Source of the DNA: Chloroflexota bacterium
GTDB taxonomy: Bacteria; Chloroflexota; Limnocylindria; Limnocylindrales; CSP1-4
NCBI GenBank assembly: GCA_021802585.1
Contig: JAJZRQ010000005.1
Location: 761 to 64,760, forward strand
Reading direction: 5' to 3'
DNA: 64,000 bases
A program made the translations under genes and the position numbers. Every line of letters starts with the position of its first letter. The first letter of the stretch is position 1. Positions 33,147-49,455 of the stretch are shown here, piece by piece. The notes under the pieces are model-generated. The model worked only from the letters and a program-made list of their open reading frames with translations. It was not told the origin of the DNA and made no database searches.

Positions 33147-33523
33147 TGACGAGCAACCTGCCCGTCGCGGCGGGCCGGCCGACCCTCGAGCGGTCCGCGG
33201 CGTTGGCCGCGTTCTTCCAGGGCATGTCGGATCCAACCCGGATGCGGATCCTCGAGCTTCTCGCGGAGCGGCCGCGAACCGTGACCGAGCTCGTCGACGA
33301 CCTCGGCCTCGTCCAGGGTCGGATCTCGTCGCACCTCACCTGCCTCCGCTGGTGCGGCTTCGTCCGGGCGGACGTCGAGGGTCGCTTCAACCGCTACCGC
33401 TTGGTCGACGATCGGATCCGCGACATCCTCCGCCTCGGCGAGGCGATCATCCGCGACAACGCCGATCGGCTCACCTCGTGTCTCGTCCTTGCCGCGGAGC
33501 ACGCTGGCGGAGAGGGTGACTAG
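33146..33523 (+). CDS. ArsR-family metalloregulator
   Basis: FFQGMSDPTRMRILELLAERPRTVTELVDDLGLVQGRISSHLTCLRWCGFV. The ATG overlaps the merB stop (TGATG). Confidence 0.85.
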   Translation: MTSNLPVAAGRPTLERSAALAAFFQGMSDPTRMRILELLAERPRTVTELVDDLGLVQGRISSHLTCLRWCGFVRADVEGRFNRYRLVDDRIRDILRLGEAIIRDNADRLTSCLVLAAEHAGGEGD

Positions 33524-33632
33524 AGGCCAGCGGTTGGATGCTGCCGCTGAGGCGAGCCTGGCGGGCCGCCGCGAGCGGGTGGCCTACCACCCTCCCCGGT
33601 GTGTCGGGCGGCTAGTCCGCTCGTTCGCTGGC

Positions 33633-33664
33633 TTGACATTGAACCCGACTTCAACGTGTAGGGT
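33633..33664 (+). promoter_or_regulatory. MerR-type promoter with long spacer and dyad
   Basis: TTGACA (33633-33638), 20-nt spacer containing ACATTGAA/TTCAACGT, then TAGGGT (33659-33664). ATG is 6 nt after the -10. Confidence 0.45.
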
Positions 33665-33670
33665 CCGGCC

Positions 33671-34426
33671 ATGAGCCTCTCGATCACGGAGATCTCCCGC
33701 CGGGCGGGCGTCTCGACCTCGACTCTTCGCTACTACGACCGCCTCGGTCTGCTCCCAAGCGCCGGCCGCGGCCAGAACGGCTATCGGCACTACGACGATC
33801 GGGCGCTCGATCGCCTCCGGTTCATCGCGCGGGCCAAGGAGCTCGGCTGCTCACTCGACGAGATCGCCACGCTCCTCACGGCGTTCGACGAAGACTGCGG
33901 CGAGGTTCAGACGCCGCTCCGTGAGCTGGTCGAAGGCAAGATCGCGACCGCCCAGCGTCGGGTGGCGGCGCTGGTCGGGCTGACCGCCCAACTCCAGGAG
34001 GCGCGCCACGCCCTCAGCGCGGAGACCTCGGCCGGGCCGTATGGTCCTGGCTGTGCGTGCGTCGACGCCGCCCCGCGGACTCAGCCCCCGCTGACCGGCC
34101 GGCCGCTGACCGTTGTCCAGCTTGCCGAGTCGGATCCGGCGATCGCCTGCACGCTCAGCCACGACGAGATGGGCGACCGGATCGCCGAGTGGCAGGCCGC
34201 TCTCACCCACGTCCGCGACCGGACGCCCGTCGACGGCGGGATTCGCCTGGCGCTCGGGCCGGATGCCGACCTTGCCGAAGTGACCCGGCTCGCCCGGGCC
34301 GAGTGGGCGTGCTGCTCGTTCTTCGCCTTCACGCTCACCGTCGACGGCCGTGGGTCCGCGCTCGAGGTGCGCGCGCCCGAGGCCGCCAAGGACCTGGTGG
34401 CGTCGGTCTTTGGAGTCGCCGCGTGA
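33671..34426 (+). CDS. MerR-family transcriptional regulator with extra C-terminal domain
   Basis: ITEISRRAGVSTSTLRYYDRLGLL...GYRHYDDRALDRLRFIARAKELGCSLDEI. Confidence 0.85.
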   Translation: MSLSITEISRRAGVSTSTLRYYDRLGLLPSAGRGQNGYRHYDDRALDRLRFIARAKELGCSLDEIATLLTAFDEDCGEVQTPLRELVEGKIATAQRRVAALVGLTAQLQEARHALSAETSAGPYGPGCACVDAAPRTQPPLTGRPLTVVQLAESDPAIACTLSHDEMGDRIAEWQAALTHVRDRTPVDGGIRLALGPDADLAEVTRLARAEWACCSFFAFTLTVDGRGSALEVRAPEAAKDLVASVFGVAA

Positions 34427-35523: not shown

Positions 35524-35766
35524 ATGCAGGCAATGGAAGCAACGACACCAGCGACGAAGGTCATCTACGGCGTGAACGAGCTCGATCTCGATCTCGCTGG
35601 GAAGTCCATCCGCGGGATCTGGAAGGTCCTCGAGCAGGTCCTGAACATCCCGCGCGACGCCGCGGTGTCGGTCAACGGCGACCGGGTCCAGGACGACTAC
35701 GTCGTCCGCCCGGGCGACGAGATCGAGTTCCAGAAGCAGGCGGGCGTGAAGGGCCTGGAGGCCTAG
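35524..35766 (+). CDS. ThiS/MoaD-like ubiquitin-like (beta-grasp) protein, Ubl-1
   Basis: 80 aa. ...AAVSVNGDRVQDDYVVRPGDEIEFQKQAGVKGLEA resembles sulfur-carrier/Ubl C-termini. ACGGAGG SD. First gene of the cassette. Confidence 0.6.
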   Translation: MQAMEATTPATKVIYGVNELDLDLAGKSIRGIWKVLEQVLNIPRDAAVSVNGDRVQDDYVVRPGDEIEFQKQAGVKGLEA

Positions 35767-35846
35767 ACGCCAGCCAGCGCGGATGCCCGGAGCCGGTGGA
35801 CCCTCCCACCCGGTTCCGGGCTCCCGCAGAGAGGAGCCCGAACGCC

Positions 35847-36617
35847 ATGCAATCGCGCACGTTCCTGCGCATCGAGGGCGACCTCGTGAGCCTGATCACG
35901 GAGGTCATCGACCGGGAGGTGACTCTTCCGGACCTCATGACCGAACTCACGACAGCTCAGGTCGCCATGACCCCTCGGCTGCCGACCGGCTGCCGCTTCT
36001 GGCTTCGCTCGGGGACGACCGACCGATCGGTCTTCGTCGTCGAGCAGCCCCCGTCGCGGCGGACGATCGAATACCACGCCAGCCGACGTCACGACAGCGA
36101 GCCGACCACCTATCGGCTCGCTGTGCCGTACGTGGTCTTCGTCGTCTGGACGATCGGCGAACAGGTCGAGGGACTAGCCACGTACTTCCGGGCGCAGCCG
36201 ATCGCGTCGCTCGACGCGACGCTGCTCTGCTCGACCCTGCCGAACACGAACGACGACGGCGTCGTCTGTCTCGGGTCGGTCCGGGTCAGCGGGGCGAGCG
36301 TCGGCGAACGGGTCGACGCACTGATCGGCGCGTTCTGGGCGAGCCGCTTCAACCAGGATCTCCGCCGGCACCCGCTGCCCTTCAACGGCGGCTTCCGGGC
36401 CTGGGCATCCCGCTCCCGGCGCGATCCGCTCGCGGCCCTGTCCCTGCAATACGACCCGTACTGGCGGACCCTCCGCCAGGTCGTGGCGCAGCTGGCCGGA
36501 CTCGCGATCACGGATCTGCCGGCCGGGGCACCCTTGCCGGAGGAACCGGCGGAGGCCGAGGTCCTGACCCCGGAACCTATGGCGGACGGAGGTGAGCCCG
36601 ATGCCCTCGCTTCGTGA
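35847..36617 (+). CDS. E2-like protein (putative Ubl-conjugating enzyme, candidate PRTRC protein-B-like)
   Basis: LPNTNDDGVVCLGSV mimics the UBC HPN-x5-G-x-(I/V)-C-L active-site motif. AGAGGAG SD before ATG 35847. Only the last 256 aa of ORF 35343..36617 look coding. Confidence 0.5.
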   Translation: MQSRTFLRIEGDLVSLITEVIDREVTLPDLMTELTTAQVAMTPRLPTGCRFWLRSGTTDRSVFVVEQPPSRRTIEYHASRRHDSEPTTYRLAVPYVVFVVWTIGEQVEGLATYFRAQPIASLDATLLCSTLPNTNDDGVVCLGSVRVSGASVGERVDALIGAFWASRFNQDLRRHPLPFNGGFRAWASRSRRDPLAALSLQYDPYWRTLRQVVAQLAGLAITDLPAGAPLPEEPAEAEVLTPEPMADGGEPDALAS

Positions 36618-36858
36618 CCACCTCATCCGGACGCCGGAGGTCCGCTCTCGGAATCTCAGCGCCTGGATGGCTCCCGCTCTCGGCGAACGAGCGACACCGC
36701 TGCCCGATCGATTCTTCGAGGAGGCCGCACTGACGGTGCTCGCCCACGTCTTCCGGGATGCGGGTCCCATCCGGGAGCAGCTCGTCTACGAGCGACGCCG
36801 CTTCGAGCGGTTGGTCCAACTCATCCACCGCCTGCCCGAACGGGCCGGAGGTGCGTGA
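36601..36858 (+). CDS. Small hypothetical protein of cassette 1
   Basis: ATG 36601 is 8 nt after GGAGGTG. It overlaps the previous gene by 17 nt and the next one by TGATG. No motif recognised. Confidence 0.4.
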   Translation: MPSLRDHLIRTPEVRSRNLSAWMAPALGERATPLPDRFFEEAALTVLAHVFRDAGPIREQLVYERRRFERLVQLIHRLPERAGGA

Positions 36859-37685
36859 TGTTTCCGATCCTCGAAGCCGGTCCATCGCTCGAGGGGGCGA
36901 CCCTGCCGGCCTTCGTCGTCGCTCGCGACGGGCTCTACCTGCGGAAGCGAAGCCTCCTCGGGCTGAGCCAGACGAAGGTCGGCCGGATCGCCCACCTGCC
37001 GGAGGGCAGGGAGTTCGTCGACTACGCGCTGCCCAAGGTCCCAGCCGACCTGATGGCGCGCGCGGTCGGCTTCTTCCGCGCCGTCTACCGGCTGCATAAG
37101 ACCGAGGCGGCCGTTCTCCTGGTCTGGCGTGACGCAGGCTTCGACCTCGTCGTGCCGGCCCAGAAGGTGTCCAGTGTCTCGGTCAAGTTCGACCTGGCGG
37201 ACGGCGACGTGCCGTCCGGCGGTCGACTCGTGGGGACGATCCACTCGCATGGGGGCTTCGGCGCCTATGCGAGCTCGATCGACGAGGACGACGAGGCGGA
37301 GCTCGATGGGCTCCACGTCGTCGTCGGCGACTTCGATCAACGACGGCTCGGCTACTCGGCCGCGATCGTCGTCGACGGCATCCGCTTCTCTCTGAAGACC
37401 GGTCAGCTCATCGAGCGGCCTCGGCGCCTCGCCGAGCCACCCGACGACTGGCTCCGGAAGGTGAAGCTGGCGCCGCCGCCCCGCCTCAAGGGCAAGCCGT
37501 CGATCAAGGAGTACCTCGCCCGGGGCTTCAAGCCCTCGGACGAGATCTCGAAGCCAAGTCGACGGGAGCTCGACGACGCGATCGAGAAGGCGAGCAAGCT
37601 CGCCACCGCCCTCGGCTACCGCCTCAGCTACTGGCTCGTGCCGGTCTCCGGCTCGAGCGAGAAGGGAGGCACGGCCGATGGCTGA
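36858..37685 (+). CDS. JAB/MPN (JAMM) metalloprotease, cassette 1
   Basis: Exact JAMM motif HSHGGFGAYASSID (H-x-H-x7-S-x2-D) with upstream Glu (HKTEAAVLL). About 110-aa C-terminal extension. Confidence 0.8.
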   Translation: MFPILEAGPSLEGATLPAFVVARDGLYLRKRSLLGLSQTKVGRIAHLPEGREFVDYALPKVPADLMARAVGFFRAVYRLHKTEAAVLLVWRDAGFDLVVPAQKVSSVSVKFDLADGDVPSGGRLVGTIHSHGGFGAYASSIDEDDEAELDGLHVVVGDFDQRRLGYSAAIVVDGIRFSLKTGQLIERPRRLAEPPDDWLRKVKLAPPPRLKGKPSIKEYLARGFKPSDEISKPSRRELDDAIEKASKLATALGYRLSYWLVPVSGSSEKGGTADG

Positions 37686-38376
37686 CCGGATCGTCCTCGT
37701 CGGCTGCGGCGGGATCGGGAGCCAGTTGCTCCCGCCGCTCGTCCGCTACCTCGCGAACCGGCCCGAACCGCGCTCGCTCCTGGTCCTCGTCGACGGCGAC
37801 GTCTTCGAGCCCGGGAACCGATCGCGACAGGCCTGCTCGACCAGCGATCTGGGCTCGAACAAGGCCGAGGCCCTGGCCCGGGTCGCACGAGACGATGGGC
37901 TCGCCGTCCAGGCCATCCCCGAGTTCCTCGACGAGACCAACGTCCGGTCGATCGTCCGCGAGGGAGACATCGTCCTCCTCGCGGTCGACAACCACCGGGC
38001 GCGGGCCCTCGTCGATCGACATCTCGGATCGCTCGACGACGCGACGCTCATCAGCGGCGGCAACGACGAGACGGACGGCAACGTCCAGCTCGTCCGCCGC
38101 CGTGACGGCTGGTCCGTGGACGGCCATCTGACCGAGATCCACCCGGAGATCGGCATGGCCACTGTAGAGGAACCGCGCGGCGACGGCTGCCAGGCAATGG
38201 CGGCCGAACATCCGCAGCTCCTCGTGACGAACCTGATGGTCGCCAGCGCGATGCTCAGCTGCCTCTGGCAGATCAGTGAGCGCGGCAGCGTCCCCTACAG
38301 CGAGGTCTACCTCGACGCCATCCAGAACGCGGCCCGCAGCCGCTCCTGGTTCCGCGTCCCGGCCGGCGCGCAGTAG
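37678..38376 (+). CDS. ThiF/MoeB-type E1-like adenylyltransferase, cassette 1
   Basis: VGCGGIGS nucleotide loop, DGDVFEPGNRSRQ, GSNKAEA and AVDNHRAR are the canonical E1 adenylation-site residues. Confidence 0.85.
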   Translation: MADRIVLVGCGGIGSQLLPPLVRYLANRPEPRSLLVLVDGDVFEPGNRSRQACSTSDLGSNKAEALARVARDDGLAVQAIPEFLDETNVRSIVREGDIVLLAVDNHRARALVDRHLGSLDDATLISGGNDETDGNVQLVRRRDGWSVDGHLTEIHPEIGMATVEEPRGDGCQAMAAEHPQLLVTNLMVASAMLSCLWQISERGSVPYSEVYLDAIQNAARSRSWFRVPAGAQ

Positions 38377-38454
38377 GGAGTGTGGACCCACAGGTGCACA
38401 ACCCGGCCGAGGCGGCGCCCACCGGCGTCCCTCGGCCGAACGATCTCAGGCGGC

Positions 38455-38486
38455 TTTGTTACAGGACTTGAAACAATTGTCACAAA
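38455..38486. promoter_or_regulatory. AT-rich inverted repeat ahead of the ATPase gene
   Basis: TTTGTTACA-14 nt-TGTCACAAA (8/9 complementary), in a locally AT-rich patch. Confidence 0.3.
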
Positions 38487-39619
38487 CGCGATCGACGAAC
38501 CCGTTCCGACCTGGTAGCGGGATCCTCCCGCCGCTCTTGGCTGGGCGCGAGCGCGAGACGGCTGCCTTCGAGGCGCGCGTTGCGCGGACCCGCGAGGGCC
38601 AGCCGCAGCACACGGCGCTGCTCGGCGAATGGGCGATCGGCAAGACGACGCTCCTGATGCACTGGCGACGCCTGCGACAGCAGGCTGGCGACGCCGTCGT
38701 CCTTTCGATGGCATACCCGCAGTCGGCGGACGAGTTCCTCGCCGGTCTCGTCACGGCGATCGATGCCGAACTTGGGACGGACTGGCCGCGGCGTCTCGAC
38801 GTGGAGCTGGGCGTCGATATCGGAATCGCCGACGCTCGGTTCCGCCGGACCGCCCCGAACTCCGAGAGGGAGTTGCGCGCGGCATTGCGACGACTCGTCG
38901 AGCACCGCGCGGACGAGGACCGGTCCGTGGTCGTCTTGCTCGATGACGTCGACCTGCTGCGTGAGACCGGGGACGTGCTCCTGCGCCTGCGCGCCTGTGC
39001 CCTCGAGCTCTACGCGGCCGACCTGCCGCTCGCATTCATCGTGGCGGCGTCCCCAGGCCTGTTCACGGAGGTGCGATCGGCTCACGAGCCGCTGGTCCGG
39101 TTCTTCGAGCCGCTGACTGTCGGTCCGCTCGATGACTCGGACGCCGCGCGAGCCCTGGCCGAACCGCTCGCGGAAACAACCGTTCGATTCGACCCCGACG
39201 TGGTCGCCGAGATCGTGGACCTCGCCGGCGGACGACCCTACTACCTTCAGAAGCTCGGCTACTACACGTTTGACGCCGCGGGCAACGGGCGGGTCACACA
39301 GGCCGAGTTCGCGGTCGCCTTCGAGCGAGCGTTTGCCTCCGTAAGCCAGGAGATCTTCGCCGCTCGCTGGGCCGGTATGTCCCCGATCGACCGCCAGGTT
39401 GTGGCCGTCGTCGCCCGCAGCACCGAGCCGCGCCCCTCGGGCGACATCGAAGCCGAGGCGGCGCGACGCGGAGTGAGGCCGGGAGCCGCCCGGCAATCGC
39501 TGCGCCGTCTTGCGTCGAAGGGCCAGATCGACCGGCTCGCCAACGGGCACCGCGGCCGTTACGAGGTTCGGGATCGGCTCTTCAAGCGGTACCTGGAACT
39601 GCAGACATGCGAGCCGTAG
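38468..39619 (+). CDS. AAA/ORC-like (archaeal-ATPase-type) ATP-binding protein with C-terminal wHTH
   Basis: NPFRPGSGILPPLLAGRERE, Walker A GEWAIGKTT, Walker B VVVLLDDVD, C-terminal LRRLASKGQIDRL. Start TTG 38468 or 38477 (uncertain). Confidence 0.75.
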   Translation: MKQLSQTRSTNPFRPGSGILPPLLAGRERETAAFEARVARTREGQPQHTALLGEWAIGKTTLLMHWRRLRQQAGDAVVLSMAYPQSADEFLAGLVTAIDAELGTDWPRRLDVELGVDIGIADARFRRTAPNSERELRAALRRLVEHRADEDRSVVVLLDDVDLLRETGDVLLRLRACALELYAADLPLAFIVAASPGLFTEVRSAHEPLVRFFEPLTVGPLDDSDAARALAEPLAETTVRFDPDVVAEIVDLAGGRPYYLQKLGYYTFDAAGNGRVTQAEFAVAFERAFASVSQEIFAARWAGMSPIDRQVVAVVARSTEPRPSGDIEAEAARRGVRPGAARQSLRRLASKGQIDRLANGHRGRYEVRDRLFKRYLELQTCEP

Positions 39620-40557
39620 CCGTCGCAAGCGCTGTTCCCAGACTCGACGAGTTCGCGCTTGCCGACGTCATCTCCGAGTACCTCTCCGCCTTGAAGGTCG
39701 CCGGCAGGAGCCCGAAGACGATCAGTTGGTATGCCGACATGCTCTGGGAGTTCGTCCGGTTCATCGAGCGTGAGGGGGTTCGGGCGACGGTCGCGGACGT
39801 CGCCCCCGTCGAGGTGCGGCGCTGGCTGCTGGCAATCCAATCACGACGAACGCGAAGCCTTGCCCCAAGCAGCATGGCCGCCCGCGTCCGGACCGTGAAG
39901 GCGTTTGGGACCTGGATCGCGAACGAGCTTGATCTGCCGGCGAACCCGGTTCGGGGTGTGCCGGTTCCTCGTGTCCCCGAACTTCTCGTTCCTAGCCTTC
40001 GGGAACCCGACATCCTTGCCCTTCTAAGAACCCTCGATGCAGGTTCTCAGCAGCCCGAGCGCGACCGGGCGATCGTCCTGCTGCTGCTCGATACGGGTCT
40101 GCGCCTGAGTGAGGCCGCCAACCTTCGAATTCGCGACGTCGACCTCATCGAGGGTCGGTGCCGCGTGATGGGAAAGGGCGGACGAGAGCGCGTAGTGCCA
40201 GTTGGCCGAAAGACCCGTCGCGCTCTCCGTCATTGTCTCGCGCGCCGGGGAAGGCTCCTGCCCGACGAGGCTCTGTTCATCGGCCGCGGTGGTCGGGCGC
40301 TCGCTCCCCGCGGCATTCAGCAGCTCGTCCGCCGACTGAGCCGCCGCACCACGCTCGCGTCGCGATGCTCACCTCACGTCCTTCGCCATACCTTTGCCCG
40401 ATCGTTTCTTGCGAACGGTGGCGACGTGTTCTCGCTTCAGCGAATCCTCGGCCACAGCCCATCGTCCCTTCAGGTCACTCGTCGGTACGTCGACCTGCTC
40501 GATGACGACCTCCGCGCGGTACACCGTGAGGCCTCACCGGTCGACCGTCTGGGCTAG
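39607..40557 (+). CDS. Tyrosine recombinase/integrase (XerC/D-like), Int-1
   Basis: LLLLDTGLRLSEA (Arg), HVLRHTFA (H-x-x-R), LGHS...TRRY (His, Tyr). The ATG overlaps the ATPase gene end by 13 nt. Confidence 0.9.
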   Translation: MRAVAVASAVPRLDEFALADVISEYLSALKVAGRSPKTISWYADMLWEFVRFIEREGVRATVADVAPVEVRRWLLAIQSRRTRSLAPSSMAARVRTVKAFGTWIANELDLPANPVRGVPVPRVPELLVPSLREPDILALLRTLDAGSQQPERDRAIVLLLLDTGLRLSEAANLRIRDVDLIEGRCRVMGKGGRERVVPVGRKTRRALRHCLARRGRLLPDEALFIGRGGRALAPRGIQQLVRRLSRRTTLASRCSPHVLRHTFARSFLANGGDVFSLQRILGHSPSSLQVTRRYVDLLDDDLRAVHREASPVDRLG

Positions 40558-40600: not shown

Positions 40601-41464
40601 TCAGCCGCTTGGGTCCCAGAACAAGATCAGAACCTGGTAGGTCGTATTCACCAGTTCATATTTCACAACGCGGCGCTTGCCCGCTAGATCGATACGAAGT
40701 TCCTCGCCACCGACGACCACTGCGGGTTTGGTCAGATCGGCGGCTGAACGAAGCCAGGTCTCGGGCGGGTCGGCAATCACCACAGGCACCTTCGGCGGCC
40801 CGAATCGCTCAATCCATGACGGCGACGCGGTGACCTCATTGCGGCGGTAACGAAGGGGTTCGCGACTCAGCGGCGATGGTTCCAGCGCGATCGCAAGCAC
40901 GGGGCGATGATGAGTCCGTGCAAATGCCCGCAATGTTGCACGGATTGACGCCCCAAAGAGACCCGCGATGGTCACGACCGAGGCCATCTCCAATCGGTGC
41001 TGCGCGGCGATGCGACGGATGAAGTCGTGTTGGAACAGCAGAAGCGAGGCGCCCTCATTGGCCTCCCGTTCAAACAAACGCCGGGTCGCCGGCGAGAGAT
41101 CGACGTCGTCGTCGACTACGACGAGATCCGTCTGCCATGGCGCGATGTGATGGACGACTTCATGAAGTCGATTGAAATTTCGTCGCCCGTGGATCGCGAT
41201 GGCGGGGTCGAGGTGAATCTCGCGTTCGCGGCGATCGAGCAACGCACGGATCTTGAAGCGAAAGGGAGCGATCGCCGCGCGAAGGTACTGCGGTGCGCGC
41301 GAGAGGACGGAATCGGAGAGGACTGACTCGCTGGCCTCCCGCAGGTTGCCGGCGGCCACGATGTCGTCGATAGGGGTCGGCAATCGTCCGAGCGCGCCAG
41401 CATCCAGGAGGAGCCGGTGGGTCAACCGGCTAATCTCGTCGGGATGCTCGGCATCGCCGGTCAT
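40601..41464 (-). CDS. ImmA/IrrE-family zinc metallopeptidase
   Basis: HEVVHH (HExxH) followed by FEREANEGASLLLF, as in ImmA/IrrE/CapP peptidases. Starts 2 nt after the stop of the XRE gene. Confidence 0.7.
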   Translation of the reverse strand: MTGDAEHPDEISRLTHRLLLDAGALGRLPTPIDDIVAAGNLREASESVLSDSVLSRAPQYLRAAIAPFRFKIRALLDRREREIHLDPAIAIHGRRNFNRLHEVVHHIAPWQTDLVVVDDDVDLSPATRRLFEREANEGASLLLFQHDFIRRIAAQHRLEMASVVTIAGLFGASIRATLRAFARTHHRPVLAIALEPSPLSREPLRYRRNEVTASPSWIERFGPPKVPVVIADPPETWLRSAADLTKPAVVVGGEELRIDLAGKRRVVKYELVNTTYQVLILFWDPSG

Positions 41465-41466
41465 CC

Positions 41467-41817
41467 TCAGCCCTCGCGGCTGCGCTCGTGCCGATACCAG
41501 GACAGGTATCGGGCCAGCTCTTCCACCTCTGCCGCCGAGAGATCCTCTGCATTCAGGGCATGAGCAAGGATATTCACGGAGGCGTCGCCTCGACCCGCTC
41601 GAGGGACGACATGGCCGGCAAGCTCCATTAGGTCTCGATACGGAATGGCCAGTGCTGCCGCCAGGCGATGTAGGACCGCCGGCGACGGTTGCTTGACCTC
41701 GCCTCGTTCGATCTTCTGAAGATATGGCGGACTGATGCCCGCCTTCGCAGCCGTGCCGCGGAGGGAAAACTCCTTCAGTTCACGGACTTCGCGCAGGCGT
41801 CGTCCGAGATCACCCAT
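41467..41817 (-). CDS. XRE-family HTH transcriptional regulator
   Basis: LRGTAAKAGISPPYLQKIERGEVKQPSPAVLHRLAAAL. ATG 41817 follows AAGGAGGA. Only the last 116 aa of ORF 41467..42198 are real. Confidence 0.85.
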   Translation of the reverse strand: MGDLGRRLREVRELKEFSLRGTAAKAGISPPYLQKIERGEVKQPSPAVLHRLAAALAIPYRDLMELAGHVVPRAGRGDASVNILAHALNAEDLSAAEVEELARYLSWYRHERSREG

Positions 41818-41862
41818 CGAATCCTCCTTCTCGTTCACCGACGGCGTGACTGTACACTCCAG

Positions 41863-41892
41863 TTGACATCTTCGCAACCTCTCAGCTAGCAT
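41863..41892 (+). promoter_or_regulatory. Sigma-70-like promoter of the Ubl-2 operon
   Basis: TTGACA (41863-41868), 18 nt, then TAGCAT (41887-41892), in the 108-bp divergent region between the XRE gene and Ubl-2. Confidence 0.4.
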
Positions 41893-41925
41893 GGGCCGCG
41901 TAACCCGTAGTGAACGGAGGATCCA

Positions 41926-42207
41926 GTGGTGAACGAACAGGACAAGGTCAGGGACAGCATCAAGGTAACGGTCACTTTCCCCCTCGGCGAGGGGCCCTAC
42001 CACGATGACGTGCCACCGGACACGACGGTCGGCGATGTCCGATCGGCAGCCATGCGCGGCTTCGGCGTGACTGAGGATCCGGCATTGCTCTTCTACCTCA
42101 TTCACGCCGGCGACAGGATCGACGACGGTCGGACGATCGGCGACGTGGCCGGCCACGCGGCAGCCGTCAAGTTCACCCTCGCCCGCGAGATCATTCAAGG
42201 GGCCTGA
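41926..42207 (+). CDS. Ubiquitin-like beta-grasp protein, Ubl-2
   Basis: 93 aa. IKVTVTFPLG...TTVGDVRSAAMRGFGV...YLIHAGDRIDDGRTIGDV...VKFTLAREIIQGA fits the alternating beta/alpha pattern of prokaryotic Ubl domains. GTG follows GGAGGA. Confidence 0.55.
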   Translation: MVNEQDKVRDSIKVTVTFPLGEGPYHDDVPPDTTVGDVRSAAMRGFGVTEDPALLFYLIHAGDRIDDGRTIGDVAGHAAAVKFTLAREIIQGA

Positions 42208-42644
42208 TGGATATCGAGAGCCAGCTGCGCCTCGACGAGGACGTTGAGGCGGTCGCCTTCTACCTTGACGAGAATGGCGGTCGCCTCGACGCCGATCCGG
42301 CTGGCGAGGCCGGCGTTTGGTGGGCCACGATGCGGCCCCGCACTATCCCCGAGGAGCAGTACTACGTTCGGATCGGCTGGCTCCGATACCCGGACGCGCC
42401 TCCCTCGGTCAAGTTCGGAACCGCCGTCGGCGGTTCACTTGGCATCACGGCCGCGTGGCCCGTCGTGCCGAGCTATCGGCCAGGCAATTTCGATATCTGC
42501 GCTCCGTTCACAAAAGAGGGGTTCGAATCGCATCCGGAGTGGGCCGCCCAGTTCCCGTGGCCCACGACCGGCAACCCTTTTCTGTGGATCGTGGACATCG
42601 TCCAGGGGCACCTTGACCGCTCGTACCAGGGGCGATCGGGATGA
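42207..42644 (+). CDS. UBC-like E2 (Ubl-conjugating enzyme)
   Basis: YPDAPPSVKF mirrors the E2 YPxxPPxVxF motif. A candidate catalytic Cys sits in NFDICAPF about 35 aa later. TGATG overlap with Ubl-2. Confidence 0.65.
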   Translation: MDIESQLRLDEDVEAVAFYLDENGGRLDADPAGEAGVWWATMRPRTIPEEQYYVRIGWLRYPDAPPSVKFGTAVGGSLGITAAWPVVPSYRPGNFDICAPFTKEGFESHPEWAAQFPWPTTGNPFLWIVDIVQGHLDRSYQGRSG

Positions 42645-43126
42645 CCGGTCTCGAACTACCGGCGGCTGCGCTGGCGCGCCTGCTCGCCGATGTCGTTCGG
42701 TTTGGTGACAACGGCCTCGAGACGGGTGCGGTGCTGCTCTCGTCCCGTCGTGACAGTCATGCCGATGTCCTAGCACTGTGCGGCGAGCACGGAATTGAGC
42801 GCCGTCCCGACCAGTTCGTAATAAGTGGCGCCGCCCTCGCCCAACTGTTCGACTGGGCAGACGAGGCAGGGGCCCGGGTTATCGCTCAGGTGCATTCGCA
42901 TGGCGGACTCGCGCGGATGTCCCCAACGGACCGACGGTTCGGGCTCACCGTCGAGGGCTTCACGAGCGCCATCGTCCCGCACTTCGGTCGACCGCCAAAT
43001 GATCCGGCGGCATGGGGATGGTGGCGGTTTCAGGACCAGGTCTGGGTGCCCTCCGACCCTGGATCAGCTGTAGCGGCCCCGAGCCGGACGGTCATCTTCG
43101 ACGAGGAGGGAGTTCGTGCCGGCTGA
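42641..43126 (+). CDS. JAB/MPN (JAMM) metalloprotease, cassette 2
   Basis: ETGAVLL Glu and HSHGGLARMSPTD (JAMM with one residue less in the spacer). ATGA overlap with E2. Confidence 0.75.
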   Translation: MTGLELPAAALARLLADVVRFGDNGLETGAVLLSSRRDSHADVLALCGEHGIERRPDQFVISGAALAQLFDWADEAGARVIAQVHSHGGLARMSPTDRRFGLTVEGFTSAIVPHFGRPPNDPAAWGWWRFQDQVWVPSDPGSAVAAPSRTVIFDEEGVRAG

Positions 43127-44630
43127 TCACTCCCGCGCGCTTCTCCTCGGGCAGAACGTGACCGACCAGCCGCAGAGCGAGCTCGCTCAGCGACTCGAGG
43201 GCGCGAGCGTTTCGATCGACATCGACCTCGGCATTCCCGGTGCTGTCTTGACCGCGTCGATCCTCGTTCGGACCCTCCGGCGCCTCCCTGGGCGCATTTC
43301 GATCGACCCCGATGAACTGCCCACCTCGCTGGTCGAGCGGCTCCGCGTCGAGGCCGAGGCCATCGATCCGGATCGACCCATCGCCGTTGGCCGGCCTCGG
43401 GCTGGTGACACGATCATCCGAATCGGCACCACGGGGCCGCCCGGGTCATTGCGCGTCATCCCAGATCTGCACGGCTTCCGCCTCTCGTGGGCGAGCAACT
43501 CCCTTCAACAGGGGAAACCTGCTTCCGCTCTGGGATCGGCCGCGGCTGCTGCTGCTGCCGCCGCCGAGACCTTCAAGGTGGCGGCCCGCGTAATCGGAGT
43601 TCGGGGCCGTCGCCATCGCCGTCTGGCATGGTGCCCGGTCACACTTTCCCATCGGCCCGCTCAAGGCCCGGATCTTCCGCGCGACTGGCAGTTGGACGGC
43701 CTCCTCCTCGGGCTGGGGGCGATCGGGTCGGCAACCGCGCTGATCCTCTCCGAGCTGCCGGTTGAGGGGTCGCTCGACCTCGTCGACCCGCAACGGTTCG
43801 CACCCGAGAACGTCGGGACGTATTCGCTCGGCGGTGCCAAGGAGGCTCTCGATCAGCCGTGGAAGACCTCCGTGGCCGCGAGCGCCCTGAGACGATTCGA
43901 GACGAGGAGCTGGAATGCGGTCGCGGCGTATCTGCCCGAACTCATCGACGCAGGCCGACTCCGGTGGCCCCCGATCGTCCTAACAGGACTCGACTCGCCT
44001 GACGCACGCCGCGACTCCCAACGTCTTTGGCCGGATCACCTAATCGATGGAGCCACAGGCGACACGATGGTCGGCCTTCATGCGATTACCGCTGTCGGCC
44101 GGCCTTGCCTCGCATGCTTCTTCCCGCCGACGGCGACGCCCACGGTCTCGCCCACGCGGGAGCTGGAGCGTGCGACGGGATTGCCGACGGAGTTACTTGT
44201 GCGAGGCGCGGAGATCCTGCTCGAGGCGCATCTCGAAGGTCTCTCGGTGGCGCACCAGGAGCGTCTGCGCCCCTTTGTCGGCAGGGAGATCTGCGGGCTT
44301 GCGAGTGCGCTTGGGCTGACGGAGCTGCCCGACGAGGGATACCGACCATCGGTCGCCTTTGTGTCGCTGACCGCCGCGACTCTCGTCGTCGGGCGGCTGG
44401 TCGCGATCGCTGCGGGCTGGCGGACTGCATCCAACTTCGTGCAGTACGACACGCTCGCCGGCCCGCGCCAGCCGACGCGCGAGTGGCGGACCGCGCGGCC
44501 CGCATGCGATTGCGTGCAGCGCGCAGGCGTCGTCGCGGAAGTGAGACGCCGCCGGGCTGCGTATCGGTTTGTCGACCGACCGCCGTCGATCGGCCATGAT
44601 CGGATGACGCCAGCGTCGAACGAGGCTTGA
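43116..44630 (+). CDS. E1-like Ubl-activating enzyme (long form with N-terminal extra domain)
   Basis: C-terminal half: GLGAIGS loop, PWKTSVAA Lys, GLDSPDARR Asp, Zn pairs CLAC and CDC. About 200-aa N-terminal domain without a nucleotide loop. Confidence 0.75.
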   Translation: MPADHSRALLLGQNVTDQPQSELAQRLEGASVSIDIDLGIPGAVLTASILVRTLRRLPGRISIDPDELPTSLVERLRVEAEAIDPDRPIAVGRPRAGDTIIRIGTTGPPGSLRVIPDLHGFRLSWASNSLQQGKPASALGSAAAAAAAAAETFKVAARVIGVRGRRHRRLAWCPVTLSHRPAQGPDLPRDWQLDGLLLGLGAIGSATALILSELPVEGSLDLVDPQRFAPENVGTYSLGGAKEALDQPWKTSVAASALRRFETRSWNAVAAYLPELIDAGRLRWPPIVLTGLDSPDARRDSQRLWPDHLIDGATGDTMVGLHAITAVGRPCLACFFPPTATPTVSPTRELERATGLPTELLVRGAEILLEAHLEGLSVAHQERLRPFVGREICGLASALGLTELPDEGYRPSVAFVSLTAATLVVGRLVAIAAGWRTASNFVQYDTLAGPRQPTREWRTARPACDCVQRAGVVAEVRRRRAAYRFVDRPPSIGHDRMTPASNEA

Positions 44631-44636
44631 TCGAGG

Positions 44637-45455
44637 ATGACACTCGCCACCGTCATCAAGGGACCTGAGGGGGTCGTGCTGGCCGCCGAGAGTCGGGTCA
44701 CGCTGCGCGTCGCGACTGGCGGTCGTGAGCGCGAGAGCACGTTCGATCATGCAACCAAAGTGCTGAGTTTCGGAGCGCCGAACACCGGCTTCGGCGCAGT
44801 CACGTACGGGGTGGGCGTTCTCGGTCGTGACCGCACCGCGGCGAGCTTCATTCCCGAGTTCGAGGCGACGCTGCCAGATGAAGCGATCCCTGTTGCGGAG
44901 TTCGCAAGCCGACTTGGCGACTTCTTCCGGGTCCAGTGGCAGGCCAACCCGCCGACAGCCAAGCCCGCGGACGCCATGTCATTCCTGGTCGCGGGATTCG
45001 ACGCCGACGATGCCTACGCCCGGGTGTTCCAGTTGGACGTCCCGATCACGGTCACGCCGATCGAGCATTTCCTGGCGCCCCATCAACCTCCATTCGGGGC
45101 GCGCTGGGGCGGTCAGAAGAAGATCGTTGAGCGATTGTTGGCCGGCTTCGATCCGCTCCTTCCCGAGATGGTCCGGCACCGCCTCGGTCTCGATCCGAAA
45201 CAAATGGACGAAATGCGTGAGGCGGTATCAGCGCTCGAGCTCTCGGTGCCGTGGGAGGCTATGGCTCTGCAGGACTGCATCGACCTTGCGATCTTTGGAA
45301 TCCGCTCGACCATCAGCGCTCAGGCCCTGTCCCTGGAAGTCCGTGGCTGCGGTGGGGCGATCGACGTGGCTGTAATAACGCGGCGCGAGGGGTTGCGATT
45401 CGTACAACGCAAAGCGCTCGTCGGCGACCATCCGAGCGGTCGGACGGAGACCTGA
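44637..45455 (+). CDS. Proteasome beta-subunit/HslV-like Ntn threonine protease
   Basis: MTLATVIKGPEGVVLAAESRVT (Thr right after Met, Glu17, Arg19), TKVLSF (Lys33 equivalent). C-terminal GGAIDVAVITRREG closely matches archaeal beta subunits. Confidence 0.8.
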   Translation: MTLATVIKGPEGVVLAAESRVTLRVATGGRERESTFDHATKVLSFGAPNTGFGAVTYGVGVLGRDRTAASFIPEFEATLPDEAIPVAEFASRLGDFFRVQWQANPPTAKPADAMSFLVAGFDADDAYARVFQLDVPITVTPIEHFLAPHQPPFGARWGGQKKIVERLLAGFDPLLPEMVRHRLGLDPKQMDEMREAVSALELSVPWEAMALQDCIDLAIFGIRSTISAQALSLEVRGCGGAIDVAVITRREGLRFVQRKALVGDHPSGRTET

Positions 45456-45485
45456 GGCTCCGGACACGATCCCTCGGACGACTGC

Positions 45486-46439
45486 CTACCGCCCCTTGTT
45501 GCCCATGAGCCGATCGGCCGGCGACGCCCCGCGGTGGCGCTCGACGAGGTCGACGTCGGCGAGGGCGACATATCGCTTGACCATGTCGAGCGTCGTGTGG
45601 CCGAGGATCCGCTGGAGGCTGAACACGTCGCCGCCGTTGACGAGATAGCTCCGAGCGAACGTGTGGCGGAGCGAGTGCGGACTGAGCCGGCCCGTCACCC
45701 CGATCCTCGTCTTCAGCCGACGGATCGCCTGCTGGATGCCGCGGCCGTCGATCGGCCCGCGCCGGCCGAGGAAGAGGGGATCGTCGGCTGCCCCGGGGCC
45801 GCGCTGACCGAGGTAGCGGACGATCGCCTGCCGGGCGGTCCCACCGACCGGCACGATCCGCTCCTTCGATCCCTTGCCGCGGACCTTGAGCGTCCCGTCG
45901 ACCCGCAGGTCGCCGAGGCGCAGCCCACCCGCCTCGGACACCCGCAGGCCGGTGTCGAGCAGTAGGAGGAGGATCGCCCGGTCGCGCAGACCGGCGACCG
46001 CGAGCAGCCTCCGCATCGCGTCGTCCCCGACCGGCTCGATGAGCCTCTCGGGGACGCGCGGCTTGCGCAGTGCCCGCAGCGCCGTGGCCCGTGCGAGCTC
46101 CTCGGCCGCCAGCCAGTTGCCGAGGACCTTGAGGGTCCGGACGTAGCCGGCGACACTGATCGGCGAGAGCGTCGAGCGGAGCTCGAGCAGCCAGGCCCGC
46201 AGGTCGGCCCCGTCAAGGCTGTCGACCGGCCGGCCGTCGCCGAGCGAGGTCACCGCTCGGCGCAAGATCATTCGATACCAGGTGAGGGTCTTCGCGGCGG
46301 CGCCCTCGGCGGCCTTCGCCGCGAGGAACAACTCGACCGCCCGGCCGAGCGTCAGGTGCCCGTCAGAATCAGGTGCCCATAGATTCTGAGTGCCCGAATC
46401 AGGTGCCCAAAGATCAGGGGAGTCAGGTGCCCAAACCAT
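45486..46439 (-). CDS. Tyrosine recombinase/integrase, Int-2 (homolog of Int-1)
   Basis: LLLLDTGLRVSEA, HSLRHTFA, LGHT...VKRY. Start uncertain (ATG 46439 or GTG 46484). The N-terminal WAPDS repeats may be non-coding DNA repeats. Confidence 0.9.
   Translation of the reverse strand: MVWAPDSPDLWAPDSGTQNLWAPDSDGHLTLGRAVELFLAAKAAEGAAAKTLTWYRMILRRAVTSLGDGRPVDSLDGADLRAWLLELRSTLSPISVAGYVRTLKVLGNWLAAEELARATALRALRKPRVPERLIEPVGDDAMRRLLAVAGLRDRAILLLLLDTGLRVSEAGGLRLGDLRVDGTLKVRGKGSKERIVPVGGTARQAIVRYLGQRGPGAADDPLFLGRRGPIDGRGIQQAIRRLKTRIGVTGRLSPHSLRHTFARSYLVNGGDVFSLQRILGHTTLDMVKRYVALADVDLVERHRGASPADRLMGNKGR
46352..46432. repeat. Array of five TCAGGTGCCC decamers
   Basis: Copies at 46352, 46369, 46399 and 46423, plus a degenerate copy (TGAGTGCCC) at 46387. 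The same 9-mer TCAGGTGCC occurs inside both tRNA-Gln genes (46586, 48513). Confidence 0.6.
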
Positions 46440-46510
46440 GTCCGTCGCCTCCTGCGACGGACCACCGTTCGGGGCTCCGACCACGACATCTGGTGCTCCG
46501 GGTCCTCATT

Positions 46511-46540: not shown

Positions 46541-46615
46541 TTGGCTGGCGAGGAAGGATTCGAACCTTCAATCCCCTGATCCAGAGTCAGGTGCCTTACC
46601 GTTAGGCCACTCGCC
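46541..46615 (-). tRNA. tRNA-Gln (anticodon CTG), copy 1, CCA encoded
   Basis: Manual fold of the minus strand: acceptor TGGCGAG/CTCGCCA, D arm GCCT..AGGC, anticodon arm CCTGA-CTCTGGA-TCAGG, T arm GAAGG-TTCGAAT-CCTTC, discriminator G, CCA. Confidence 0.9.
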
Positions 46616-46687
46616 AGCGATGCCGCAGCGGCGCCCAGAGTCTACCGCGTCGGCTGCGGCCGCCTCAACCGCGGGTCGCCGGTCGCC

Positions 46688-48400
46688 TCAGCCACGCCCA
46701 CCCTGCGGGGTGTCGTGACGGCCCTGGGCCTGGAGCTTCGCCCACGTGTCCTTGAGGGTGAGCGTCCGGTTGAAGACGAGGCGGCCGGGCCTCGAGTCGG
46801 GGTCGGGGCAGAAGTACCCGAGGCGCTCGAACTGCACGGTCGCCCCGGCGGGCGTCTCCGCGAGGTCCGGCTCGACGCGGCAGCCCCGCAGGACGGTCTC
46901 CGACGCGGGGTTGAGATCGGCGAAGAGGTCGCCGTCGGCTCCCGGGTCGGGCCGCGAGAACAGGTGGTCGTAGAGCCGCACCTCCGCGGGCACGGCGTGG
47001 GCGGCGGAGACCCAGTGGAGCGTCGCCTTCGGCCGGCGGCCGTCGGGGGCGTCGCCGCCGCGGGTCGATGGGTCGTGCGTGCAGCGGAGCTCCACGACGC
47101 GGCCGGCCTCGTCCTTCACGACCTCGCGGCAGGTGATGAAGTACGCCGAGCGGAGGCGGACCTCGCGCCCGGGGGCCAGGCGGAAGAACTTCGCCGGCGG
47201 CTCCTCCAGGAAGTCGTCGCGCTCGATCCACAGCTCGCGCGAGAACGCCACCGTCCGCGTCCCGGCGGCCGGGTCCTCGGGGTTGTTGGCGACCTCCACC
47301 TCTTCGACCTGCCCCTCGGGGTAGTCCTCGACGACGACCCGGAGGGGGTCGAGGACCGCGAACCGCCGGGGCGCCGTCCGATTGAGGACGTCGCGCACGG
47401 CGTGCTCGAGCATCCCGATCTCGACGACGCTGTCGGCCTTCGCCACGCCGATGAGGGCCGCGAAGTCGCGGATCCCCTCGGCGGGAAAGCCGCGCCGACG
47501 GAGGCCGCTGATCGTCGGCATCCGCGGGTCGTCCCAGCCGCGCACGCGGCCCTCGGTCACGAGGCGCAGGAGGACGCGCTTCGAGAGGACCGTGTGGGTG
47601 AGGTTGAGCCGCGCGAACTCGTACTGCCGCGGGCGCGAGGGGACCGGCAGGTTCTCGATGAGCCAGTCATAGAGCGGCCGGTGGGCCTCGAACTCGAGGG
47701 TGCAGATCGAGTGCGTGATCCCCTCGATCGCGTCGGACTGGCCATGGGCGAAGTCGTACGTCGGGTAGACGCACCAGGCGTCGCCCGTCCGCGGGTGCGC
47801 GGCGTGGACGATCCGGTAGAGGACGGGGTCGCGGAGGTTGATGTTCGGGGAGGCCATGTCGATCTTCGCCCGCAGGACCCGGGCCCCGTTCGGGAACTCG
47901 CCGGCGCGCATCCGCTCGAAGAGGTCCAGGCTCTCGGCGGCCGGGCGGTCCCGCCAGGGGCTGTTCTGGCCCGGCTCGGTGAGCGTCCCACGGTGCTCCC
48001 GGATCTCGTCCGCGGTGAGGTCGTCAACGTACGCCTTGCCGGCCTTCACGAGGTGGACGGCCCAGGCGTAGAGCTGCTCGAAGTAGTCGGAGGCGTGGTG
48101 GAGGTGCTCGCCCCAGTCGAAGCCGAGCCACCGGACGTCCGCCTCGATCGCGTCGAGGTACTCCTGCTCCTCCTTCACCGGGTTCGTGTCGTCGAACCGG
48201 AGGTGGCAGCGGCCGCCGAACTCGGCGGCGATCCCGAAGTTCAGGCAGATCGACTTGGCGTGCCCGATGTGAAGGTACCCGTTCGGCTCCGGCGGGAAGC
48301 GGGTGACGATCGTCGTGTGGCGGCCTTCGCGCAGGTCGGCGGCGACGATCTCGCGGATGAAGTCGGACCGCTCGGCGGCGGTCGGGGTCTCGGTGCTCAC
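46688..48400 (-). CDS. glnS: Glutaminyl-tRNA synthetase
   Basis: [18 protein letters not shown] (HIGH), VLSKR (KMSKS-type), extensive class I GlnRS-like sequence. GTG 48400. The longer ORF to 49354 runs through tRNA-Gln-2 and is an artefact. Confidence 0.92.
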
Positions 48401-48467
48401 CTGGCGGCGCCTCTTCGGATGCCGGGGGAGGCGCGGCTCGCGGTGGCGCACCACACTCCGGGGGAGT

Positions 48468-48542
48468 TGGCTGGCGAGCAAGGATTCGAACCTTGAATCC
48501 CCTGATCCAGAGTCAGGTGCCTTACCGTTTGGCCACTCGCCA
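48468..48542 (-). tRNA. tRNA-Gln (anticodon CTG), copy 2, CCA encoded
   Basis: Same fold as copy 1. Differs at 3 positions: one in the D loop and a compensated pair in the T stem (CAAGG/CCTTG versus GAAGG/CCTTC). Confidence 0.9.
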
Positions 48543-48630
48543 GCGACCGCCGCGCATGATACCCGATGTCGGGAGGGGGCCCGGCCTGGTGGGGCGGGCC
48601 GGGCGAGGCGGCCCGCCGGGGCCGCCGGCG

Positions 48631-49146
48631 CTAGCCTCGGTGGTGGTAGCGCTCCATGACGTCCGCGACGGCGGCGCGCGCCTCCGCCCACTCCGGCTCG
48701 TCCCCGAGGACGGACGCCCCCGCGCCCCAGCGCGCGAGCTGGGTCATCGCCGTGACGACGGCGTCGTGGCGGGCAGCCCGGGAGCGGCCGGCGTCGACGA
48801 CCCCGGTGACGAGATAGCGCCGGACGAGGTCGAACGGGGCCCGCCAGCGGCCGATCCGGACCCGGTCGCCCTCGCGGAGCGACTCCAGCCACTCGTCGTC
48901 GCCGACCGGCGCCCGGTCGTGCTCGTGGACGTGGGCGACGACGGGGATCCGCCGGGCCGGGGCGAGGGGCGACGGGATGAGTCCGTCCGGGTCGGCCGTG
49001 CGGTAGCAGACGGGGCAGCTGGGGAGCGGGACGTCGTCGCGGGGCGGCGCCCCGAACGGGAGGCCGCAGCGGCCGCAGACGGCGACGCCCGGCCGGCGGG
49101 CGACGGTGCCGCACTGGAGGCAGGCCGGGAGGTGGGCGACGGCCAC
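48631..49146 (-). CDS. Hypothetical zinc-ribbon protein
   Basis: CLQCG...CGRCG and CPVC Cys pairs at the N-terminus. No family recognised. Confidence 0.45.
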
Positions 49147-49455
49147 GGCTCAGGACGTCGGGTGGCCGAAGGCCGGCCGGACCAGGGCGAGCGGCCCGCG
49201 GGCGGAGGACCCGACATCGTGCGACGCCGCCGCCGCGGCGCGGCCGCGGAACGACGGCGCGCGCATCCCGCGGCGGGCGGGCAGCGTCGGAGGAAGGTGG
49301 CGGGCGCGGTGGAGCACGGGCCCGATGCTCGCGCGCGCCGGTGCGCGGGTGCAATGGCCCGGGGGTCCGGGGGACGAAGGTCCGGGTCGGGCGGCGGCCG
49401 CCCCCGCCGCGCTCGCGGATGCGGCACCATGGGCGGACCGCAGCCGAGGAGCCCG

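Follow-up and report, generated by a model that had tools for sequence, protein, structure and literature searches.

What does a proteasome-like protein contribute to a bacterial operon that otherwise encodes a ubiquitin-like conjugation pathway? The question is raised by a 64,000-nucleotide (nt) stretch of a Chloroflexota genome (assembly GCA_021802585.1, contig JAJZRQ010000005.1), referred to here as the window, in which five genes on the forward strand follow one another closely. The first four are bilA (41926-42207), encoding a single beta-grasp ubiquitin-like protein (Ubl) of 93 amino acids (aa), bilB (42207-42644), encoding an E2-like enzyme of 145 aa, bilC (42641-43126), encoding a deubiquitinase-like JAB/JAMM peptidase of 161 aa, and bilD (43116-44630), encoding an E1 adenylating enzyme of 504 aa. 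The fifth, which we call gene 5 (44637-45455), encodes a 272-aa proteasome-beta-like N-terminal nucleophile (Ntn) hydrolase. A proteasome-family gene as the fifth gene of a Bil operon is a rare combination that is not described in the literature searched; through it, one clade within a family of orphan proteasome-like proteins acquires definite partners, and it bears on two open questions, namely the consequence of bacterial Ubl conjugation and the role of orphan proteasome homologs.

A Bil-type operon with a fifth gene

The five genes are tightly packed: bilA and bilB meet at a TGATG junction (42205-42209), bilB and bilC overlap by 4 nt (ATGA), bilC and bilD overlap by 11 nt, and 6 nt separate bilD from gene 5. 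The intergenic region between bilA and the divergent capH-like gene contains a promoter-like element, TTGACA-18-TAGCAT (41863-41892, forward strand), which matches the consensus at 10 of 12 positions, is a consensus match only, and has short inverted repeats close by. It is the one promoter-like site in the region 41400-45600, compared with 0.4 expected from shuffled sequences. No internal promoter ahead of gene 5 was found within that region, nor any terminator-like site between bilD and gene 5. Judged from this arrangement, gene 5 is probably co-transcribed with the Bil genes and translationally coupled to them. A reading made from the letters of the window without database searches (the sequence-only reading) had reported five co-directional open reading frames (ORFs) with these coordinates and junctions, the promoter element, and the motifs EIIQGA, YPDAPPSVKF, NFDICAPF, HSHGGLARMSPTD, GLGAIGS, CLAC and CDC, all of which were found again in the window ORFs. 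Proteins of the window are present in a public Chloroflexota metagenome-assembled genome (MAG) as MDA8204015.1 and MDA8204016.1, both labelled 'hypothetical protein'.

The gene order Ubl-E2-JAB-E1 is that of Bil operons, and each of the four products could be related to its Bil counterpart. BilA matches the PADLOC BilA model (1.7e-8) as well as ubiquitin (E = 1.3e-3 for a single-ubiquitin chain), and consists of one ubiquitin-like domain that aligns to positions 79-158 of the 162-position PADLOC model. It ends in QGA, while nearly all homologs of its clade stop at ...QG; by these sequence matches it is a predicted beta-grasp Ubl with a C-terminal Gly. BilC matches the Type II deubiquitinase of known structure (BilC, PDB 8TYX; 4e-7) and the PADLOC BilC model (1.6e-12), scores slightly below the cut-off of the Pfam Prok-JAB model (23.6 bits, cut-off 25), and carries the HSHxxxxxxxSxxD metal-binding motif of JAB/JAMM peptidases. 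For BilD a single-sequence search of PDB returned nothing significant; the profile of its clade matches the solved Type II E1 (BilD, PDB 8TYZ; 8.2e-20), and the protein itself matches Pfam ThiF above cut-off (1.4e-7) and PADLOC BilD (1.7e-14). Its invariant cysteines are C331/C334, C464/C466 and C393.

Structure prediction was needed for the E2 and for gene 5, because single-sequence and profile searches fell short. The match of BilB to the PADLOC BilB model is weak (0.021), a single-sequence search of PDB gave nothing significant, and its profile found only sub-threshold UEV/E2 matches there (E = 0.2). The AlphaFold2 (AF2) model of BilB, built from 43 homologs, has a predicted local distance difference test score (pLDDT) of 95.8, and Foldseek paired it with eukaryotic UBC E2s (probability 1.0, template modelling (TM) score about 0.6) and with the bacterial BilB chain of 8TZ0 (TM 0.59-0.63). 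Cys98, Glu104 and His109 are invariant across the 43 sequences, and the predicted structure presents an E2 fold with a catalytic Cys and an adjacent His. The CEHH signature of Type II E2s (C-x5-E-x-H-x4-H) is absent in its strict form: Cys-x5-Glu and one His are kept, Phe106 stands where His146 would be expected, and the histidines are spaced differently. Because BilB reproduces CEHH only in part, the operon is placed in Bil, closest to Type II, without being a strict CEHH member. With PADLOC, the PDB profile matches and the E2 structure in agreement, genes 1 to 4 are a Bil-type Ubl-E2-JAB-E1 operon, as the sequence-only reading had proposed; its Ubl call is borne out by the PADLOC and ubiquitin matches, and its E2 call by AF2 and Foldseek.

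The best reference is the Type II BilABCD system of Ensifer aridi (Chambers et al., PMC10557695; PDB 8TYX, 8TYZ, 8TZ0), which shares the gene order and a single beta-grasp Ubl with one or more residues beyond the reactive Gly, and whose E1 and JAB components are matched by sequence and its E2 by fold. The sequences are nonetheless distant, the hosts are Rhizobiaceae in one case and Chloroflexota in the other, the E2 of the window has Phe where His146 would be, and only the window has a fifth, proteasome-like gene. The four components are also homologous to those of the ISG15-like, antiphage Type I Bil system (Hör et al., bioRxiv 10.1101/2023.09.04.556158), in which BilA has two ubiquitin-like domains instead of one and for which no protease other than the deubiquitinase is mentioned. 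Described Bil operons have four genes (PMC10557695; bioRxiv 10.1101/2023.09.04.556158), as the sequence-only reading had stated. The Bil and Bub papers mention no proteasome-like component, and targeted literature searches for such a link returned nothing.

The gene 5 product and its family

The proteasome identity of the gene 5 product rests on its predicted structure and on alignment register, because the Pfam threshold was missed. The Pfam Proteasome model (PF00227) gives a sub-threshold match of 16 residues with 13.8 bits against a cut-off of 22.4; nothing reached threshold in Pfam or NCBIfam, PADLOC gave no match, a single-sequence search of PDB returned nothing significant, and the family profile reached only E = 0.02-0.03 against PDB. 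The AF2 model, a monomer built from 42 family members (pLDDT 84.4, predicted TM score 0.82), yielded 280 Foldseek matches in PDB at E <= 1e-3. At the top stand 20S beta subunits and Anbu (probability 1.0, E about 1e-7, target-normalised TM 0.6-0.7), and the model shows the alpha-beta-beta-alpha fold of proteasome beta-type subunits. The family profile is in exact register with the Thermoplasma acidophilum beta subunit: after removal of Met1, Thr/Ser1, Glu17 and Arg19 coincide, with E18 and R20 of gene 5 as the in-register counterparts of Glu17 and Arg19, and the family motif GCGGxIDVAxITR aligns with SASGGMIDVAVITR. Thr2 of gene 5 directly follows the Met and becomes the predicted N-terminal nucleophile once this Met is removed; most family members have Ser at this place. 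K41, invariant in the family, is by its position likely the equivalent of Lys33, which completes the predicted catalytic-type residues (N-terminal nucleophile, Glu17, Lys33). Among the 91 family columns with at least 90% conservation, gene 5 keeps 75, including E18, R20 and K41. On this model the product is a predicted proteasome-family Ntn hydrolase, an assignment that holds at the superfamily (fold) level only; the earlier call of a 'proteasome-beta homolog' stands as far as predicted fold and register are concerned and fails at the Pfam threshold.

Residues 162-200 of the model form three helices, and we read residues 175-200, by our own placement, as a putative helical insertion between H3 and H4. 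The model also retains helices H1/H2, which bears on the idea, drawn purely by analogy with connectase, that gene 5 might be a transpeptidase or ligase that serves BilA as an E3-like or chain-editing transferase. Bil operons encode no E3, and connectase shows that a proteasome-like fold can support ligation; H1/H2 are, however, absent from connectase, gene 5 has no specific similarity to it, and the best fold matches of gene 5 are the 20S beta subunits and Anbu. We regard a transferase of this kind as very unlikely.

The family, for which Pfam has no model, counts at least 741 clusters when grouped at 90% identity and 1,109 representatives at the 50% level, and is spread broadly across bacteria and archaea, where its members are normally stand-alone genes. 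In long contigs they occupy ordinary chromosomal contexts (a sediment bacterium, Zixibacterium, Methanothermobacter), and in none of 80 loci from species-representative genomes encoding a member was a relative of a Bil or Cap gene found nearby. Relatives of gene 5 on plasmids were likewise looked for, with none found. Pseudomonas aeruginosa phages carry distant relatives among hypothetical genes, about 25% identical over 85% of the length; they are present in Pseudomonas phage LPPA33 (OR188720.1; locus L178, 3468-4328) and in 15 other P. aeruginosa phages. The nucleophile position is occupied by Ser in 107 of the 115 stand-alone sequences of the alignment, and by Thr in two of the three lineages in which a family member is linked to Bil genes.

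In 69 of 84 loci, the stand-alone hydrolase gene is followed by a small ORF that evolves fast and is tightly coupled to it. These partner ORFs (loci L010-L089, L003, L005, L007 and L172) have no Pfam match and share a short N-terminal motif, e.g. '...ELTA.Y.ASDWA.LS..W.I.MY'. Together, hydrolase and partner look like a conserved two-gene module that was not reported in a 2021 survey of proteasome homologs. No partner ORF lies downstream of the Bil-linked copies in the window or in locus L171, both flanks having been examined.

In that survey (Fuchs, Alva and Lupas 2021, PMC8665760), none of the proteasome-homolog groups had a genomic context that was informative. It describes H3-H4 insertions as typical of its 'PMI' groups, arguing that they possibly bar double-ring assembly. 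The homologs it describes have the same fold, a Ser or Thr right after Met without a propeptide, and a helical insertion (putatively H3-H4 in gene 5); they also have a broad bacterial and archaeal spread and distant phage relatives, as does the gene 5 family. Likened by description, the family is probably a PMI-type group, with the difference that its Bil-linked clade, unlike all groups of the survey, has an informative genomic context.

Recurrence in Bil operons and possible roles of gene 5

The five-gene form is present in three diverged lineages, namely the window and the loci L171 and L180, whose gene 5 products are 50-58% identical. L171 shows 62% (BilB), 58% (BilC), 47% (BilD) and 58% (gene 5) identity to the window, and its hydrolase gene starts 1 nt past the E1 stop codon. 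For L180 the values are 64%, 51%, 50% and 50%, respectively, so that in both loci the divergence of gene 5 matches that of the Bil genes. The L180 hydrolase has Met-Thr at the N-terminus, and the ATG overlaps the E1 stop (ATGA). L180 to L182, from three samples, carry CapP, CapH and BilA-D together with the hydrolase. In all three Bil-linked lineages gene 5 thus abuts or overlaps the E1 gene. In simple neighbour-joining (NJ) distance trees, all Bil-linked hydrolases fall together in a single clade within the family (bootstrap 196/200); they are about 50% identical to the bulk of the family, whose members are about 59% identical among themselves. The E1 tree groups the window with four-gene operons in 69 of 100 replicates and with L171 in none of 100. 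Because the hydrolase clade and the E1 tree disagree, the association of gene 5 with Bil genes was kept or re-formed across Bil backgrounds: either gene 5 is ancestral and was repeatedly lost, or it moved between Bil operons, and both fit context-dependent selection.

Gene 5 is under purifying selection. Between the window and the related metagenome contig L001 its dN/dS is 0.18, compared with 0.17-0.27 for BilA-D, with similar dS. These values bear on whether gene 5 might be a decaying or non-functional relic, for which one contig (L170) would speak. There a 341-aa ORF (249-1274) joins BilC residues 17-161 to hydrolase residues 67-265, and both the E1 gene and the N-terminus of the hydrolase are missing. 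The ORF is, however, intact in all three lineages, the catalytic-type residues are conserved alongside the low dN/dS, and L170 is possibly an assembly chimera, so that a relic appears most improbable. As a deletion derivative or assembly chimera, L170 was also rejected as an additional example of the five-gene form.

Because the hydrolase recurs in three lineages, belongs to one clade, is under purifying selection and lacks its usual partner ORF, functional coupling of gene 5 to the Bil pathway is likely. In Type II systems BilC trims the residues that follow the reactive Gly (PMC10557695). In the window, BilC would remove the terminal Ala of BilA, BilD would then adenylate the C-terminal Gly, and BilA would pass via a Cys thioester from the E1 to the E2, BilB, which by analogy with other Bil systems would conjugate it to target lysines. 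The gene 5 product would be a dedicated peptidase within this pathway, acting on BilA or on BilA-linked proteins by limited cleavage, processing or deconjugation, and probably would not be a general chambered degradation machine. In this respect it would be comparable to BubE of the Bub operons (PMC11601596), which, like the window, encode an extra dedicated peptidase besides the JAB protein. BubE is a serine protease that cleaves peptide and isopeptide bonds and has been proposed to trim conjugates (PMC11601596). The two differ in kind and in distribution: BubE, found in all Bub operons, has a Ser-His dyad on an unrelated beta-sandwich fold (DUF6527), whereas gene 5 has a predicted proteasome fold and occurs in a minority of Bil operons. 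A captured family member working as a dedicated peptidase on BilA or BilA-linked proteins is the role we favour, though tentatively. Should gene 5 only trim or process BilA, it would join BubE as the second, and convergent, example of an additional peptidase that governs a ubiquitination pathway in bacteria.

Several points weigh against a role of gene 5 in the pathway. The E1 relatives form 125 clusters at an identity of at least 40%, and 80 related metagenome E1 loci keep the BilA-B-C-D order wherever there is room, about 30 of them with CapH/CapP. In none of these 80 loci, of which 58 extend 800 nt or more beyond the E1 gene, was a member of the gene 5 family found, and the operons of four further E1 relatives, taken from MAGs or assemblies, likewise have four genes. 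Gene 5 is dispensable for Bil function, because the five-gene form is rare and most relatives have four genes. BilC, by analogy with known Bil systems, would itself supply processing and deconjugating activity, and the part assigned to gene 5 is inferred from sequence and a model. The clade support may moreover be inflated by long-branch attraction, because every Bil-linked copy sits on a long branch. Only part of the public data was sampled by the censuses; the true frequency of the five-gene form is uncertain and probably higher than the counts suggest. Recurrent linkage in other genomes, by which the sequence-only reading had meant its proposal to be judged, is thus absent both from the loci of the family at large and from the related E1 loci, and present for one clade in three diverged lineages.

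The same counts raise the alternative that the hydrolase is co-transcribed with BilABCD and independent of it, either as a second defence or stress effector or as a captured housekeeping gene, lodged where island genes often insert. Nearly all of the family consists of stand-alone genes with ordinary chromosomal surroundings, five-gene operons are rare, and the slot behind the E1 gene houses many unrelated, non-recurrent genes in four-gene relatives (DEAD helicase, ApeA-HEPN, UbiA, LuxR and unknowns). A mere passenger would, however, not readily be expected to come from one clade of the family, in the same position against the E1 gene, in three lineages of 50-58% identity, and no other gene in this slot recurs across lineages in this way. 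The loss of the usual partner ORF, and dS and dN/dS values in step with those of the Bil genes, likewise speak for a gene tied to its operon. We consider independence of the two doubtful.

The sequence-only reading had gone further than a dedicated peptidase and proposed that tagging may be coupled to degradation in a minimal ubiquitin-proteasome module. In such a defensive analogue of the ubiquitin-proteasome system, BilA would mark phage or host proteins and a particle formed by the gene 5 product would degrade them. One operon does combine the genes for Ubl conjugation with that of a proteasome-fold hydrolase whose Thr1/Glu17-type site is intact, the arrangement recurs in three lineages, and Thr, the canonical proteasome nucleophile, replaces in two of these the Ser that prevails in stand-alone sequences. 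On the other hand, the module contains neither an AAA+ unfoldase nor a Ubl receptor, and no such unfoldase lies in the segment common to the window and L001 either, the only ATPase nearby being of the STAND/AAA_16 type; insertions such as the putative one between H3 and H4 have been argued to keep double rings from assembling; gene 5 is missing from most relatives; and the single Bil system of known mechanism acts by steric interference with phage tail assembly. A recent paper treats the consequence of bacterial Ubl conjugation as an open question and deems a degradation signal unlikely. The proposal of tag-dependent degradation found no support here, given the lack of an unfoldase and the helical insertion; it appears unlikely, although it comes second among the roles within the pathway, and a specific processing or deconjugating role is at least as likely. 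A broader form, in which the hydrolase clade was recruited to read the BilA tag and gene 5 cleaves or degrades phage or host proteins that carry it, we also hold to be improbable.

The consequences would nevertheless be considerable. In the Pup-proteasome system of Actinobacteria and in the Anbu operon, a gene for a tagging enzyme lies beside a gene for a proteasome-family protease. Pup has no beta-grasp fold, its ligase is the glutamine-synthetase-like PafA, and its system includes a true 20S core and the Mpa unfoldase; Anbu operons contain ATP-grasp and transglutaminase genes. Neither is known to have an E1, an E2 or a JAB gene. Were BilA-tagged proteins cleaved or degraded by gene 5, this would be the first bacterial beta-grasp tag attached by E1 and E2 to be coupled to a proteasome-fold protease, and tag reading would make the operon an immune-context analogue, possibly a relative, of the ubiquitin-proteasome link. 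Action of the protease on tagged proteins would also inform how that link could arise. Tag-dependent proteolysis is directly testable with a compact seven-gene construct.

Regulators, mobile island and neighbouring genes

Divergently from bilA, on the reverse strand, lie two regulatory genes. The first (41467-41826) encodes a CapH-like XRE-family helix-turn-helix (HTH) repressor (Pfam HTH_31, 1.7e-12; PADLOC capH, 1.1e-9), and the second (40601-41464) encodes a CapP-like metallopeptidase of the M78/IrrE type (PADLOC capP, 8.5e-12; Pfam Peptidase_M78, 1e-3, below cut-off). This divergent upstream layout, which is that of a regulated defence operon, recurs in L001, L177, L179 and L180, and a divergent CapH/CapP pair has been reported upstream of 15% of Type II Bil operons (PMC10557695). 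Between the window (40601-41826) and L001 (1352-2571), dS is 0.83 for CapP and 0.46 for CapH, compared with 0.10-0.19 for BilA-D and gene 5; these several-fold higher values suggest that the regulator pair was exchanged by recombination. In L174 (11019-12167) and L175 (10815-11975), the closest E1 relatives of the window, a single fused HTH_3-Peptidase_M78 gene lies downstream of bilD instead of a divergent pair upstream. Both of these operons are located beside serine recombinase genes, and that of L175 adjoins Type I restriction-modification genes.

The block is flanked by genes for two tyrosine recombinases: one to the left (39607-40557, forward strand; Pfam Phage_integrase, 5.9e-34), and one to the right that is convergent with gene 5 (45486-46484, reverse strand; Pfam Phage_integrase, 3.7e-33). 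Beside the latter, a tRNA-Gln(CTG) gene identified with ARAGORN (46542-46616, reverse strand) is the likely integration target. The G+C fraction drops across the block from about 0.70-0.73 to 0.63-0.68. The metagenome contig L001 is 91% identical to the window solely over 40611-45702. This span begins in CapP, includes gene 5 and reaches into the 3' end of the recombinase gene on the right; the left flank of L001 differs, and the left-hand recombinase gene is outside the shared block. The evidence supports a recombinase-flanked, low-G+C integrative island next to tRNA-Gln, so that the mobile island of the sequence-only reading is upheld by the recombinases, the tRNA gene, the G+C drop and the L001 boundaries. 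A search for a direct att repeat of the tRNA-Gln 3' end, which would mark the other island boundary, gave nothing convincing, and no tRNA genes were found in the related loci. Among the E1 relatives, none was found in viral contigs, and only two distant ThiF matches on plasmids.

The right-hand integrase ORF contains three tandem units, GA(A/G)TCAGGTGCCCA (46366-46438), which encode a repeated LWAPDS in its N-terminus and resemble the tRNA-Gln anticodon-arm segment GAGTCAGGTGCCTTA (46584-46598). By this resemblance, the units may be recombinase-binding or att-related sites. The tRNA-Gln(CTG) gene that the island abuts is the first of two; together with the second copy (48468-48542) it brackets a glutaminyl-tRNA synthetase-like ORF (46688-49354, reverse strand).

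A separate ubiquitination-like gene set lies upstream of the Bil block on the forward strand (35524-38376). It begins with a ThiS-like ORF of 80 aa (35524-35766) and continues with genes for an E2-like protein (about 35844-36617; Prok-E2_D, 5.8e-5; PRTRC_B, 2e-4), a JAB-like protein (36855-37685; PRTRC_A, 3e-8) and a ThiF protein (37678-38376; PRTRC_ThiF, 7e-19). Because every match falls below the curated cut-offs, the set is classed as a distant PRTRC-like cassette. It is followed by the STAND/AAA_16 ATPase gene (38276-39619), which was considered as an unfoldase partner of gene 5 and rejected, since its ATPase class does not fit and L001 does not share this part of the window. Left of the cassette, the region 32511-34426 encodes MerB, an alkylmercury lyase (2.2e-20), and a regulator of the MerR family (1.4e-18).

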